Positions 26,975 to 31,193 of a stretch of 32,000 nucleotides of DNA are shown here, one piece after another. Origin of the DNA: Parasphingorhabdus sp. DH2-15 (GTDB lineage: Bacteria > Pseudomonadota > Alphaproteobacteria > Sphingomonadales > Sphingomonadaceae). Location of the stretch: the NCBI RefSeq assembly GCF_051668705.1, contig NZ_CP196351.1:872020-904019 (forward strand), given 5' to 3'. How positions within the stretch are numbered: the first letter of the stretch is position 1; each line of letters starts with the position of its first letter. Both the position numbers and the translations under genes were made by a program. Under the pieces are notes generated by a model. The model saw only the letters and a program-made list of their open reading frames with translations. It did no database searches and was not told the origin of the DNA.

Positions 26975-26995
26975 AAAAGACCAAAGGAAAAATAC

Positions 26996-27280
26996 ATGGC
27001 TAATACGCTTGTAAAAGTTACTGCAGCTGCCGCTGCTCTGGCTGCTGCCGCCTCTCTGGCTTCTGCTCCTGCCGCTGCGCAATCAAAAGAAAAATGCTAT
27101 GGCATTTCTCTCGCTGGTAAAAATGACTGTGCTGCTGGTCCAGGTACAAGCTGTGCCGGTACATCAACCGTTGATTACCAAGGCAATGCTTGGAAATATG
27201 TTGCTAAAGGCAGCTGCGTAAAACAAGGCGGTTCTTTGAAAGCGCGTAAAGGCAACAAAAAGCCAGTCGCAAGCAAATAA
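26996..27280 (+). CDS. DUF2282-family secreted four-Cys peptide, bufferin-type RiPP precursor (BufA-like)
   Basis: 94 aa. Sec-type signal [29 protein letters not shown], then [51 protein letters not shown] (family signature KEKCYG..AGKNDCA...CAG....G.C), then the Lys-rich tail [13 protein letters not shown]. Confidence 0.85.
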
Positions 27281-27301: not shown

Positions 27302-28273
27302 ATGACCTCAACTGCTTATCCTGACCACGCCCAATATGGCGAAAAGTCTGCAAACTATATTGGCCAGAATATTGGTAATCGATTGAATGCATTGCCTTTA
27401 TCGGTTGGTATAGGCTTAAAGCCAGTACATTATCATGATGTTCTGGCTAGTGTGGACGATAAGATAGGCGTCATGGCGCCGGGCTGGGTAGAGGTTCATC
27501 CGCAAAATTATTTCGGTGATGGTGGTCCGCCACATAATTGGCTGACTGCCATCGCCGAACATTTTCCTCTCAGTCTTCATAGTGTTGGCCTGTCAATGGG
27601 CTCTGCCGACGGCGTAAGCCGCTATGATCTGGAGAAGATAGCTGCTTTGTGTGCGCGCTATAACCCGGCAAGTGTTTCTGATCATCTGAGCTGGAGCGGT
27701 CAAACAAGTGATCGTTATCCCGACCTTCTACCTATCCCTTATACTCAGGCGTCATTAGATCATTTTGCACGCCAGATTGATATTGTGCAGGAAAGACTGG
27801 GTCGTACTATCTTGGTGGAGAACCCGTCGCGTTATCTGGGTTATAAAGATGATGTGATGGACGAAATTGATTTCATCCATAAAATATGTGCGGCGACGGG
27901 CTGCGGCCTATTGTTCGATATAAATAATGTTGAGGTCAGTAGCACCAATATGTCTGTTATGGACCCAGAGCATCAAATGCCCGACCCAAGAGATTATATT
28001 GACGCGATCGACCCTGCAATTGTTGGGGAAATCCATTTGGCTGGTCATGCGCGCGAAGACCATGACGATGGGCCTTTGCTCATCGACGATCATGGCAGTG
28101 CAGTAAATGATCTGTGCTGGTCTTTATATGAGCGTTTTATCGCCAGATCCGGACCAAAACCAACATTGATTGAGTGGGACACGGATATACCCGATTATGC
28201 GGTTTTGATGGAGCAGGTCGCAATTGCGCGCTTGATCATGGCCAAAGCACTGCCGCATGAAGATGCTGCATAA
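27302..28273 (+). CDS. DUF692 / MNIO (multinuclear non-heme iron oxidative) enzyme, BufB/MbnB-like
   Basis: 323 aa. SVGIGLKPVHYHDVL, WVEVHPQNYFGDGG, LSLHSVGLSMGS, VSDHLSW, ILVENPSRYL, FDINNVEVS, EIHLAGH, TLIEWD: the TIM-barrel DUF692 pattern. A possible alternative start is TTG at 27383. Confidence 0.85.
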   Translation: MTSTAYPDHAQYGEKSANYIGQNIGNRLNALPLSVGIGLKPVHYHDVLASVDDKIGVMAPGWVEVHPQNYFGDGGPPHNWLTAIAEHFPLSLHSVGLSMGSADGVSRYDLEKIAALCARYNPASVSDHLSWSGQTSDRYPDLLPIPYTQASLDHFARQIDIVQERLGRTILVENPSRYLGYKDDVMDEIDFIHKICAATGCGLLFDINNVEVSSTNMSVMDPEHQMPDPRDYIDAIDPAIVGEIHLAGHAREDHDDGPLLIDDHGSAVNDLCWSLYERFIARSGPKPTLIEWDTDIPDYAVLMEQVAIARLIMAKALPHEDAA

Positions 28274-28285
28274 AGCTGATATATA

Positions 28286-29056
28286 GTGACAAAACCCGAA
28301 AGAGATAATGGTGCCGATCTCTTGGCCAGTGGCCAATCCGGCTTTATGGATGCCTTGCAAAAAGGGCCTGACCATTTGCCATCCAATTTGTTCAGTGGTT
28401 CGCGCTATCGTGCCTTTATTGGCGTAAAGGCCCATGCCAATACTATATCCCATGCACGGCTGGTCGCGCTTGAGGATACATATCCCAGACTGCGGGAGCG
28501 CTTGGGCGATGAGGCATTTAATCAACTGAGCCGCGATTATCTGGAATATGGCGATGTTCGCCAAAATGATATGAATGGTTTGGGGCGAGACTTTGCCGAA
28601 TTTATCGATGCGCAAGGTGTAGATAAAGCCAGCAGTGATTTGGCACATATCGAATGGGCCTGGCTAAAAAGCTATCATGCAGCCGATGCAGAAGCCCTTA
28701 ATATGCAGGATATTGCCGCTCTGGATGAAGCAGCATTGATGGAACTGCCCATCGCTTTGCATCCATCTGTACAGCATATCATGCTGCACGCACCATTGGC
28801 GCCGGAATTGGGGTTGGAAGTGCCCGCAGGTGATCATCTGGCTGCCATTGCGATTGTGCGTCAACAAAATGACGTTTTGCTCTTTCCGCAAACCACTGTG
28901 CAAAAAGATATTTTTATTTGCTGCAAAAATTCGGTACTGATGCGTAACCTTTTGGAATCCGCTGTCGAAACTATAGGGGAGACGCACGCTGTAGAACATA
29001 TTTTTGCTCTTGTTGGGGCAGGGTTTCTAAAGCGTTCGAACAAAAAACAAGACTAA
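28286..29056 (+). CDS. DUF2063-family protein, partner subunit of the MNIO enzyme (BufC-like)
   Basis: 256 aa, GTG start 12 nt after the DUF692 stop. FMDALQKG...YRAFIGVKAHANTISHARLVALEDTYPRLRERLGDEAFNQLSRDYL is the typical DUF2063 N-domain. Confidence 0.8.
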   Translation: MTKPERDNGADLLASGQSGFMDALQKGPDHLPSNLFSGSRYRAFIGVKAHANTISHARLVALEDTYPRLRERLGDEAFNQLSRDYLEYGDVRQNDMNGLGRDFAEFIDAQGVDKASSDLAHIEWAWLKSYHAADAEALNMQDIAALDEAALMELPIALHPSVQHIMLHAPLAPELGLEVPAGDHLAAIAIVRQQNDVLLFPQTTVQKDIFICCKNSVLMRNLLESAVETIGETHAVEHIFALVGAGFLKRSNKKQD

Positions 29057-29134
29057 CGATTGCAGCGGCTGATCAGACCATGGCTTCGACTATTTGGGCC
29101 TGCTGTTGGCCAGATTGTAAAATGGGACAATATA

Positions 29135-29590
29135 ATGAAAAATCTAATTTCAAAAATCGAAACTCTGACCGCAAACCCGTTTTTGGTGAGTGTCTTTTTG
29201 CTTCTAACACGGATTACACTAGGTGGCATCTTCTGGCGCTCGGCTACAACCCGCTTCGAAGAGGGTAGCTGGACCACATTGAATGAGAACGCAATTTACC
29301 AGTTTTCCGATGTTCCTTTTAATCAGGTGCCCGTGATTAACGGCGAATTTGGCGCGTATTTCACGACATTCAGTGAATTGGCGGTATCCATTTTATTGTT
29401 CCTTGGCTTCGCGACACGCCTGAGCGCTCTGGCAACCATTGGTATGATGAGTGTAATTCAGATTTTTGTCTTCCCGACTATCCCGCACCTTTGGGGCGTA
29501 GTCTTTATGTGGGCAATCATGGCGATTGTCCTTGTTGCGAAAGGTGGTGGAATGTTCTCAATCGACCGTCTGTTCACCAAAGCAGGATAA
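29135..29590 (+). CDS. DoxX-family inner-membrane protein
   Basis: MKNLISKIETLTANPFLVSVFLLLTRITLGGIFWRSA followed by four hydrophobic helices. The track ORF starts at TTG 29060, but I prefer the ATG at 29135. Confidence 0.75.
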   Translation: MKNLISKIETLTANPFLVSVFLLLTRITLGGIFWRSATTRFEEGSWTTLNENAIYQFSDVPFNQVPVINGEFGAYFTTFSELAVSILLFLGFATRLSALATIGMMSVIQIFVFPTIPHLWGVVFMWAIMAIVLVAKGGGMFSIDRLFTKAG

Positions 29591-29765: not shown

Positions 29766-30293
29766 ATGGCAGCAAATGAAGATAGCCTCAGGCATCTTAT
29801 GACTAAGGCGCAACAGGGTGACAAACGCTCTTATGCACTGCTGTTAGAGGAATGCCAAAAATGGTTGAAGCGCTATTATGCGCGCAAAATCCCCCCTGCC
29901 GCACTTGATGATCTGGTGCAAGAGACCTTGATTTCCGTCCATAGAAAATTGTCCAGCTATGACCCTTCAAGGCCTTTCTTGCCTTGGCTGGCGGCTATTG
30001 GCCGCTATCGCTGGATCGATCATTTGCGCAAAGTGTATCGCGCTGACGAAACCGGTTTAGAAGAAGAACTGTTGGCAGACCCTGCTGAAGAGCCGGTTTC
30101 TGCTAAAGTGAGTCTCGACAAATTATTGGATATGCTGCCGGAAAAACAGGCATCTGTTATACGCATGGTGAAAATCCAGGGCCTTTCCATTACGGAGGCA
30201 GCGGCAATGACCGGCCAATCGGAATCTCTTGTGAAGGTGAATGTGCATAGGGGCATAAAAAAAATGAATGTTTTGGTAGAAAATTCTGAGTAA
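29766..30293 (+). CDS. ECF (group IV) RNA polymerase sigma factor, SigF-like
   Basis: 175 aa. Region 2: LDDLVQETLISVHRKLSSYDPSRPFLPWLAAIGRYRWIDHLRK. Region 4: LPEKQASVIRMVKIQGLSITEAAAMTGQSESLVKVNVHRGIKKM. Confidence 0.88.
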   Translation: MAANEDSLRHLMTKAQQGDKRSYALLLEECQKWLKRYYARKIPPAALDDLVQETLISVHRKLSSYDPSRPFLPWLAAIGRYRWIDHLRKVYRADETGLEEELLADPAEEPVSAKVSLDKLLDMLPEKQASVIRMVKIQGLSITEAAAMTGQSESLVKVNVHRGIKKMNVLVENSE

Positions 30294-30441: not shown

Positions 30442-31134
30442 ATGACAACATCTCAGGGAAATGGCGGTACCAAACAGCCATTTAGCATTGATGATCTCGT
30501 TGCTGATCTGACACCTGTGAATCCGGTGCGGATCCGTGATGGTATCGCTATGGCACTTGCGTTGACACTGTTTATTAGTGTGGCAATTTCCTTCTATCTC
30601 GGTATCCGTAGCGGCCTTGCTGCAGGAAATTTTGAGACGATTTTTGTCGCACGTACATTCGCGCTTCTGGCGCTTGGCGGTGTTAGCGCTTATGCGGCTA
30701 TGTCGCTTGCTCGTCCCGCTGTAGATACAAATCTGCGAAAAGTTGAAACCATGGCCTCACGCACGGTTTTGGGTATTTCTTCGGTTTTTCCAGTTCTTGC
30801 TTTGATTTATTTCTTTGCAGATATGCCGCGCAGCAGCGTTGAGGCCGTAGCAATTTTTGACCCATCAATTGGCCGTGAATGCCTTACTTATAGTGGCCTT
30901 TCTGCTCTTGCTATTGGTAGTGCCATAACTGTCTGGTTGCGTCGCGGTGCGGTTGTTTCACCTGAGCGTGCTGGTTGGTTGACTGGTCTTGCAGCTGGTG
31001 GCTTTGGTGCAGCAGCCTATAGCTTATTCTGCCCAATGGACAGCGTGGTTTATATCGGCACATGGTTCACAATGGCCGTTGCTATGGCCGCGGTTGCCGG
31101 ACGTTTGGCGGTTCCATCGCTGCTACGCTGGTAA
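30442..31134 (+). CDS. DUF1109 / NrsF-family six-TM anti-sigma factor
   Basis: 230 aa. N-terminus IDDLVADLTPVNPVR, then six hydrophobic helices. Two Cys (GRECLTY, LFCPMD) fall in predicted periplasm-facing loops. Confidence 0.8.
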   Translation: MTTSQGNGGTKQPFSIDDLVADLTPVNPVRIRDGIAMALALTLFISVAISFYLGIRSGLAAGNFETIFVARTFALLALGGVSAYAAMSLARPAVDTNLRKVETMASRTVLGISSVFPVLALIYFFADMPRSSVEAVAIFDPSIGRECLTYSGLSALAIGSAITVWLRRGAVVSPERAGWLTGLAAGGFGAAAYSLFCPMDSVVYIGTWFTMAVAMAAVAGRLAVPSLLRW

Positions 31135-31167: not shown

Positions 31168-31193
31168 AAAGGGGCTGCTATGCCCCTTTTTTC
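31168..31193 (+). terminator. Rho-independent terminator after the anti-sigma gene
   Basis: AAAGGGGC-tgctat-GCCCCTTT followed by TTTC. Confidence 0.8.

Follow-up and report, generated by a model that had tools for sequence, protein, structure and literature searches.

The window analysed here is a stretch of 32,000 nucleotides from the genome of Parasphingorhabdus sp. DH2-15, which is assembled as a single contig of 2.86 Mb (NZ_CP196351.1). Towards its end lies a co-directional series of genes, bufA1, bufB, bufC, bufD, sigF and nrsF, followed by a terminator-like hairpin (Table 1). From its sequence, the ORF at the head of this series is assigned to the Buf1-type bufferins (captophorins) as a BufA1 (DUF2282) precursor. 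Its product matched DUF2282 (PF10048) in Pfam with an E-value of 9.7e-24, scoring 83.6 bits where the cut-off is 22.4, over residues 31-80, corresponding to positions 1-52 of the 53 of the model. Since sequence searches also returned homologues numbering in the thousands, the ORF is not a chance reading frame. The BufA2 model (NCBIfam NF050166) scored the protein at 29.4 bits, under its cut-off of 60, and there are four cysteines, not six or twelve. The best named homologues came from Sphingorhabdus, Parasphingorhabdus and Alterisphingorhabdus, some of them carrying the name 'BufA1 family periplasmic bufferin-type metallophore' in NCBI/UniRef; those so named were 84-89% identical to the window protein across the two-thirds of its length that aligned.

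Table 1 Features of the buf locus, with positions counted from the first nucleotide of the window
Feature	Position	Strand	Details
sigmaF-type ECF promoter motif GTAACC-N16-CGAA	26892..26917	+	exact, 5' of bufA1
Shine-Dalgarno AGGA	26985..26988	+	7 nt 5' of the bufA1 ATG, read from the sequence
bufA1 ORF	26996..27280	+	94 aa; ATG 26996, TAA 27278-27280 (stop included)
Predicted Sec/SPase I signal peptide, aa 1-28	26996..27079	+	rule-based n/h/c regions; cleavage between AAA and Q, alternative after A26
BufA1 core, aa 29-74	27080..27217	+	CysI 27095-27097, CysII 27128-27130, CysIII 27152-27154, CysIV 27215-27217
Proximal tail VKQGGSL, aa 75-81	27218..27238	+	family-wide GG/GSL element; DUF2282 model ends at residue 80
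Distal basic tail, aa 82-94	27239..27277	+	class-S motif x-A-[KRH]-x-G-N-x-K-P-V-x-x-[KR]
bufB, MNIO (DUF692) bufferin maturase	27302..28273	+	Pfam MbnB_TglH_ChrH E = 6e-88; NCBIfam MNIO_BufB (NF050167) 320.5 bits, cut-off 310
bufC, DUF2063 partner protein (PME type 1)	28286..29056	+	Pfam DUF2063 E = 8e-11
Second exact GTAACC-N16-CGAA motif	28944..28969	+	within the bufC 3' end, 112 nt before the bufC stop, upstream of doxX
bufD, DoxX-family membrane protein	29060..29590	+	Pfam DoxX E = 2.7e-12; true start may be ATG 29135
SigF-like ECF sigma factor	29766..30293	+	Sigma70_r2 and r4_2 domains
NrsF-type anti-sigma factor	30442..31134	+	Pfam NrsF E = 9e-37
Terminator-like hairpin and T-run	31168..31189	+	3' of nrsF

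An earlier reading of this DNA made from the letters alone (the sequence-only reading) had described the ORF as a bufferin precursor in which a Sec signal replaces the classical leader, and the DUF2282 match, the signal regions and the full buf locus agree with that description. The four cysteines lie exactly in the contexts it gave (KEKCYG, NDCAAG, TSCAGT and GSCVKQ, residues 34, 45, 53 and 74), and C34, C45, C53 and C74 did not vary in either of two family alignments, one with 53 members and one with 81. The N-terminus starts with a basic n-region, MANTLVK, and continues with an Ala/Leu h-region of 17 residues (mean Kyte-Doolittle value 1.72) leading to PAAA followed by Q. The Ala-rich signal with AxA-like sites noted earlier was recovered by rule, the best -3/-1 cleavage sites being after A28 or A26; inspection by rule found neither a twin-Arg motif nor a lipobox. 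The signal peptide is predicted to be of the Sec type by these rules and by homology to Caulobacter BufA1, whose export has been shown experimentally (PMC11626156). The features that define a BufA1 precursor and can be read from a sequence are thus all present, the signal peptide by rule only. In characterised bufferins the two central cysteines are reported to be converted into 5-thiooxazoles and the outer pair to form a disulfide (PMC11626156, PMC12452194), as the sequence-only reading had stated. By analogy, thiooxazoles are predicted at CysII and CysIII of the window protein, and a disulfide between CysI and CysIV.

The closest characterised system is reported from Caulobacter, where BufB and BufC modify CysII and CysIII of Buf1, the Sec signal is cleaved, and the small folded peptide chelates periplasmic copper (PMC11626156, PMC12452194). 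Similarly to Caulobacter vibrioides BufA1 (CCNA_03363 / CC3254; PMC11626156, PMC3511200), the window protein combines a DUF2282 domain with four cysteines at the same spacing and a predicted Sec signal. The locus also resembles Caulobacter buf1ABCD-sigF-nrsF in having MNIO, DUF2063 and DoxX genes 3' of the precursor gene, a SigF/NrsF pair and a GTAACC-N16-CGAA promoter; in the window, sigF-nrsF follows directly downstream on the same strand. Judged by these likenesses, bufA-bufB-bufC-bufD-sigF-nrsF is a complete Buf1 locus in one co-directional block, as characterised in C. vibrioides. The two precursors differ at both ends of the mature peptide. In the window protein some 6 residues separate CysI from the predicted start of the mature peptide, compared with 12 in Caulobacter. 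After CysIV, the window protein has a basic tail of 20 residues of the form GGSLxA[KRH]xGNxKPV, whereas the residue numbering published for Caulobacter gives a tail of about 16 residues there, and because of this length it probably belongs to another tail class. Buf2 (BUF_6/12Cys) bufferins and the EGKCG oxazolin/fontiphorin captophorins are likewise Sec-exported, copper-binding thiooxazole peptides modified by MNIO and DUF2063 proteins, but their cysteine number and motifs differ from those of the window protein.

Orthologues were found in Sphingomonadales (Sphingorhabdus arenilitoris, S. lutea, Alterisphingorhabdus coralli, Parasphingorhabdus halotolerans, Sphingopyxis and Blastomonas; loci L003-L018) at 69-94% identity, which for some named records, at 80-89%, extends over about two-thirds of the query only. 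They share with the window the tail motif, the operon with sigF-nrsF and both promoter motifs. The window protein stands apart from them by lysines at positions 82, 85 and 88, and by a Gln at position 77, where the orthologues usually have Met.

GTAACC-N16-CGAA is the sigmaF-binding consensus defined on the orthologous Caulobacter operon (PMC3511200). The first exact copy in the window begins 104 nt and ends 79 nt 5' of the bufA1 ATG, where 0.00 copies were expected from shuffled sequences. In 12 of the 18 loci whose precursor carries the same type of tail (class S, described below), an exact copy was found 76-102 nt 5' of bufA. The copy inside bufC was commoner than the one upstream of bufA: 14/18 class-S loci had an exact motif 88-121 nt ahead of the bufC stop. 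Recurring at the same place in bufC, the motif may be a conserved internal sigmaF promoter that serves doxX and perhaps also sigF-nrsF; in the latter case the sigma factor would be autoregulated.

The sequence following Cys74 is strongly basic. The last 13 residues contain five Lys, as the sequence-only reading had counted, plus one Arg, and the 20 residues after Cys74 carry a net charge of +7, compared with +2 on the 46-residue core. The predicted mature protein (66-68 residues) has a net charge of +9 and a pI of about 9.7, and the tail holds most of this charge. Four samples of the family were used to place this tail. In each of the 120 closest homologues the tail was 19-25 residues long and followed the pattern C-VK[MQ]-GG[ST]L-x-A-[KRH]-x-GN-x-KPV-x-x-[KR]-[GS]. 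The second sample consisted of 150 representatives drawn from 50%-identity clusters, 1304 of which match at E <= 0.001. The third was made of 77 genes taken from 80 GTDB genome loci; all 77 encoded at least 12 residues 3' of CysIV, with G[STA][LM] in 73 of them. For the fourth, 401 Pseudomonadota genomes were drawn evenly; the family was found in 87 of them, and among 50 genes taken, 49 tails entered the statistics, each of at least 9 residues (median 17). On the results of the four samples, a tail after CysIV is universal in the family. The sequence-only reading had called the tail unusual; an extension at this place is therefore not unusual as such. Its proximal part, a short helix at CysIV and then GG or GSL, is family-wide, the Pfam model itself reaching residue 80.

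Sequences beyond GSL fell into discrete conserved classes tracking operon lineage. Class S, GGSLxA[KRH]xGNxKPVxx[KR][GS], to which the window protein belongs, accounted for 20 of the 77 genome-derived genes and had a mean charge of +3.5 (+5.3 among the 120 closest homologues). The short class P, TPKGNGSLTP[KI]x, accounted for 16 (mean charge +2.5); it can also be written as TPKGNGSLTPKA. The acidic class R, LPDGRxGSLExLxRDLPA, was the tail of 35 genes (mean charge -2.8), and class F, GFGQLxAFKxK, of 2 (mean charge +1.5). Class P was hosted by Erythrobacter, Burkholderiales and Rhodoplanes, class R by Rhodobacterales, Rhizobiales and gammaproteobacteria, and class F by Pseudomonas and Rhodoferax. 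The classes resemble one another in core fold, in the Cys pattern and in the GG/GSL element after CysIV, and differ in the sequence, length and charge of what follows GSL. A MAFFT register in which G86-N87 fell opposite the G-S of the GSL of other classes was rejected, since intermediates such as C-xxx-GGSL-xP-KKA and C-EKIVGGSLTAKK identify the GGSL that directly follows the CysIV helix as the homologous element.

Many short GGS/GGK-Lys endings were present in beta- and gammaproteobacteria, and Lys-rich endings occurred in several unrelated subfamilies (GGSTKPRKG, GGKVAKVKPAKGMEKS, TPKGNGSLKPIKR). The class-S motif itself was found in 1 of the 49 genes of the even Pseudomonadota sample, and that gene comes from the same taxonomic family as the window. 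The statement of the sequence-only reading that a basic tail is no general family feature therefore held for the motif, while tails are universal and Lys-rich endings recur. The family alignment that it had proposed as a check gave a likewise divided answer: the motif was confined to one operon lineage, and Lys richness, common among unrelated subfamilies, was to that extent uninformative. Some class-S relatives had distal tails rich in Met and/or His (P0124, P0128, P0092 and P0058; loci L015 and L019), for example ending in AHDGAMMPKPMAKK or KADKMMAPEKGMSEAEKMAPKEKM. These recall Cu(I)-binding Met motifs, of which the tail of the window protein has none.

Conservation within class S was counted over 127 distinct tails. 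G78, G79 and P90 were conserved in 100% of them, L81, G86 and N87 in 97%, a K, R or H at position 84 in 96% (His in 35 of the 127), K89 in 92%, V91 in 88% and A83 in 83%. The variable positions were K82 (18%), K85 (51%) and K88 (25%). This pattern indicates that the fixed element is a Gly-Asn / Lys-Pro-Val skeleton, and the lysines of the window protein at the variable positions 82, 85 and 88 place it at the Lys-rich end (net +7). Six or more K and R residues after GSL were found in 25 of the 127 tails. In the 120 closest homologues the tail charge lay between +3 and +8, so that the window protein stands at the high end, and over class S it ranged from -2 to +8, the motif staying constant.

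Codon analysis of 19 class-S genes placed the distal tail (amino acid identity 0.54, pN/pS 0.51) near the signal peptide, the least conserved region (0.44 and 0.59), with the GGSL segment (0.68 and 0.42) and the core (0.84 and 0.17) more conserved. Constraint on the distal tail is weak overall, at about the rate of the signal peptide, except at the fixed positions. On these values, the distal tail might be an appendix that is tolerated and free to drift, its Lys richness being compositional, an explanation which we regard as decidedly improbable. The wide differences in length and charge after GSL across the family, and the Met- or His-rich versions in some relatives, would fit such drift. It does not account for five to six positions conserved at 92-100% over 127 tails at a synonymous divergence near saturation, nor for the presence of a tail in every member of the 77 and 49 genes examined. 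The distal motif is thus conserved and apparently not a product of low-complexity drift. Among the sequences compared, the tail is clearly the evolvable part of the BufA1 molecule.

We then related tail class to operon lineage. In a BufB tree, 16 sphingomonad class-S operons formed one clade (100/100) with one Erythrobacter operon inside, and the other Erythrobacter operons, of class P, were far from it. Class S was accompanied by bufBCD, sigF and nrsF in 15/18 loci (L003-L024), as opposed to class R, which came with bufBC only in 24/31 and mostly without doxX or sigF/nrsF nearby (L025-L082). The association between tail class and operon architecture is confounded by lineage. Judged from these comparisons, tail class follows the operon and not the host, and the A-[KRH]-x-G-N-x-K-P-V skeleton is confined to a sphingomonad-centred bufABCD-sigF-nrsF operon lineage. 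One locus of this lineage, from a Sphingorhabdus MAG (L006, 1375-2022, plus strand), had two tandem bufA genes 5' of a single bufBCD. The first encodes a soluble-type precursor with a basic tail (+4), the second a precursor with the lipobox LASC and a neutral tail (0), and both keep GGSL..GN.KPVP. In this pair it is apparently the motif rather than the charge that has been retained.

One role that the sequence-only reading had considered for the tail is that of a recognition element for the DUF2063 partner. In a follower-like form of this hypothesis, the RRE of BufC, or BufB, would dock on A-[KRH]-x-G-N-x-K-P-V and so position the Cys loop for oxidation. We consider it unlikely. Tail class does follow the BufB clade, the tandem substrates of one enzyme pair in L006 keep the motif despite their different charge, and the fixed G, N, K, P and V positions resemble an interface; co-inheritance, however, accounts equally well for the tree pattern. 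Charge complementarity was tried and rejected: the net charge and pI of BufB and BufC were the same in operons with basic tails and in those with acidic tails, both proteins being equally acidic (net charge of the C-terminal 130 residues of BufC, -8.8 vs -8.4). In agreement with this, the L006 tails share the motif and not the charge, so the proposed role did not find support. RRE domains usually bind a beta-strand, a form which a segment rich in Gly, Asn and Pro would be unlikely to take. In Caulobacter, C-terminal tags are reported not to block bufferin modification and the Sec signal to be dispensable for it (PMC11626156); the latter implies that recognition lies somewhere in the core peptide. 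There, the far better conserved strands 31-35 and 66-70 would be likelier handles.

A broader form of the hypothesis is that the post-GSL classes (basic GNxKPV, short TPKA and acidic LxRDLPA) are recognition handles by which the cognate BufB/BufC, DoxX or another class-specific partner would pick out precursors that have a Sec signal and no leader. We judge this less probable still; if it were true, tail class would encode pathway specificity wherever a genome holds several DUF2282 precursors and MNIO pairs, as this one does.

The same genome contains an orphan DUF2282 paralog (L002, 1426-1791, minus strand; about 573.9 kb on contig C1), flanked by queA and tgt. Its signal is of the lipoprotein type (lipobox LAAC) and is followed by a long linker rich in Ser, Thr and Glu; the tail is acidic and R-type, ALPDGRTGSLEPLERDNA; at this locus there was no adjoining MNIO gene and no exact sigmaF motif. 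A second MNIO cluster (L083, 622-3215, plus strand; about 2.146-2.149 Mb on C1) encodes a Cys-rich protein of 235 aa in which NDC..G.C motifs recur, followed by an MNIO (343 bits in Pfam) and, at the partner-gene position, an ORF of 267 aa (putative DUF2063). Its Cys-rich substrate is of a type different from DUF2282. A within-genome test, in which one enzyme pair would meet two precursors with opposite tails, was not clean because this second MNIO/putative DUF2063 pair comes with a Cys-rich substrate of its own.

The charge of the tail raises the possibility of an envelope-anchoring element. Under this explanation, a cationic tail would hold the peptide electrostatically on anionic lipids, glycosphingolipids or peptidoglycan and act as a substitute for lipidation. 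The high charge of the mature peptide, located mostly in the tail, is consistent with it, and lipoprotein-type DUF2282 paralogs of the same lineage (L002, the second L006 precursor and L060) lack the basic charge, although such examples amount to a handful. Non-lipidated BufA1 proteins of Rhodobacterales and Rhizobiales, however, have acidic tails, indicating that tail charge is not generally needed, and within class S the charge varies from negative to strongly positive while the motif stays fixed. Electrostatic anchoring is in our view improbable.

The dibasic pairs R84-K85 and K88-K89 could be protease targets. A periplasmic protease trimming at these sites would leave a mature bufferin that ends near GGSL, and the lowest pLDDT values of the tail, in its last 5-6 residues, would be compatible with such trimming. 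By MS, however, mature Caulobacter Buf1 is reported to be as heavy as its entire core without the signal, the C-terminus being retained (PMC11626156), a finding which runs against the processing site that the sequence-only reading had proposed; such retention is shown for Caulobacter Buf1 only. No conserved protease gene was found in the operons of the loci surveyed here (see also PMC12452194). K85 and K88 are variable positions, and trimming leaves the conservation of G86, N87 and P90, past the putative cut, unexplained. We therefore hold processing of the tail to be very improbable.

Structure predictions were made with AF2. With an alignment of 81 sequences, the model contained strands 31-35 and 66-70, a helix at 73-77 and a beta-bridge at residue 80, with pLDDT values of 76 for residues 81-90 and 68 for 91-94; the Cys loop reached 67-68 and the signal peptide 45-53. 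When the mature peptide was modelled from an alignment of class S only, residues 79-88 scored 72 and residues 89-94 scored 58, and bridges appeared at 80 and 88; this second model added little. Tail residues 79-90, at 72-76, were predicted at least as confidently as the Cys loop (39-68 over the AF2 models) and far more so than the signal peptide. The models themselves were only moderately confident (mean pLDDT 67 and 60, pTM < 0.5), and from pLDDT and DSSP we infer that the tail may pack intramolecularly. Sequence searches of the PDB returned no match for BufA or BufC; BufB matched 3BWW, TglH and MbnB only, with no substrate complex among them. A Foldseek search of the PDB with the AF2 model of BufA found no match.

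Taken together, the dispensable Sec signal, the tolerance of C-terminal tags and the retention of the C-terminus in Caulobacter, the AF2 models, the two L006 tails and the charge of BufB and BufC favour a retained, partly ordered extension in which conserved turn residues would make contact with the domain (or with a partner). They disfavour charge-driven docking and a cleavage site. We give an even chance to the reading that the distal segment stays on the mature peptide as a partly ordered extension and is neither a recognition sequence, nor a cleavage site, nor a dedicated membrane anchor. A docking site for BufB/BufC, or for some other partner, would account equally well for the conservation of G-N and K-P-V.

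The retained extension would fit into a pathway that, by homology to Caulobacter Buf1, may run as follows. Metal stress would lead the SigF/NrsF pair to fire the GTAACC-N16-CGAA promoter, and BufB (MNIO) and BufC (DUF2063-RRE) would convert Cys45 and Cys53 into 5-thiooxazoles. The peptide would be exported by Sec and cut by signal peptidase I after about A28, the Cys34-Cys74 disulfide would form, and the resulting strongly cationic peptide of about 66 residues (pI about 9.7) would chelate excess periplasmic copper. In this peptide, residues 75-81, the helix end and GGSL, would be part of the family-wide fold and residues 82-94 a subfamily-specific extension. The G-N / K-P-V turn would lie against the small beta-sheet domain, and the lysines at variable tail positions would only tune surface charge.

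The bufA1 gene of the window is an ordinary BufA1 and adds nothing new at the family level. No passage on the C-terminal tail of BufA1 was met by keyword in PMC11626156, PMC12452194 and the captophorin preprint. Within that scope, two points were not met in the bufferin papers: the universal tail after CysIV with its GG/GSL element, and the few conserved distal classes, each associated with an operon architecture. As a family of periplasmic copper-chelating RiPPs, bufferins are very large and have been defined recently. For this family the tail classes would be of modest, confirmatory value, as a cheap and well-defined set of deletions and swaps with which to study substrate recognition, stability or localisation.
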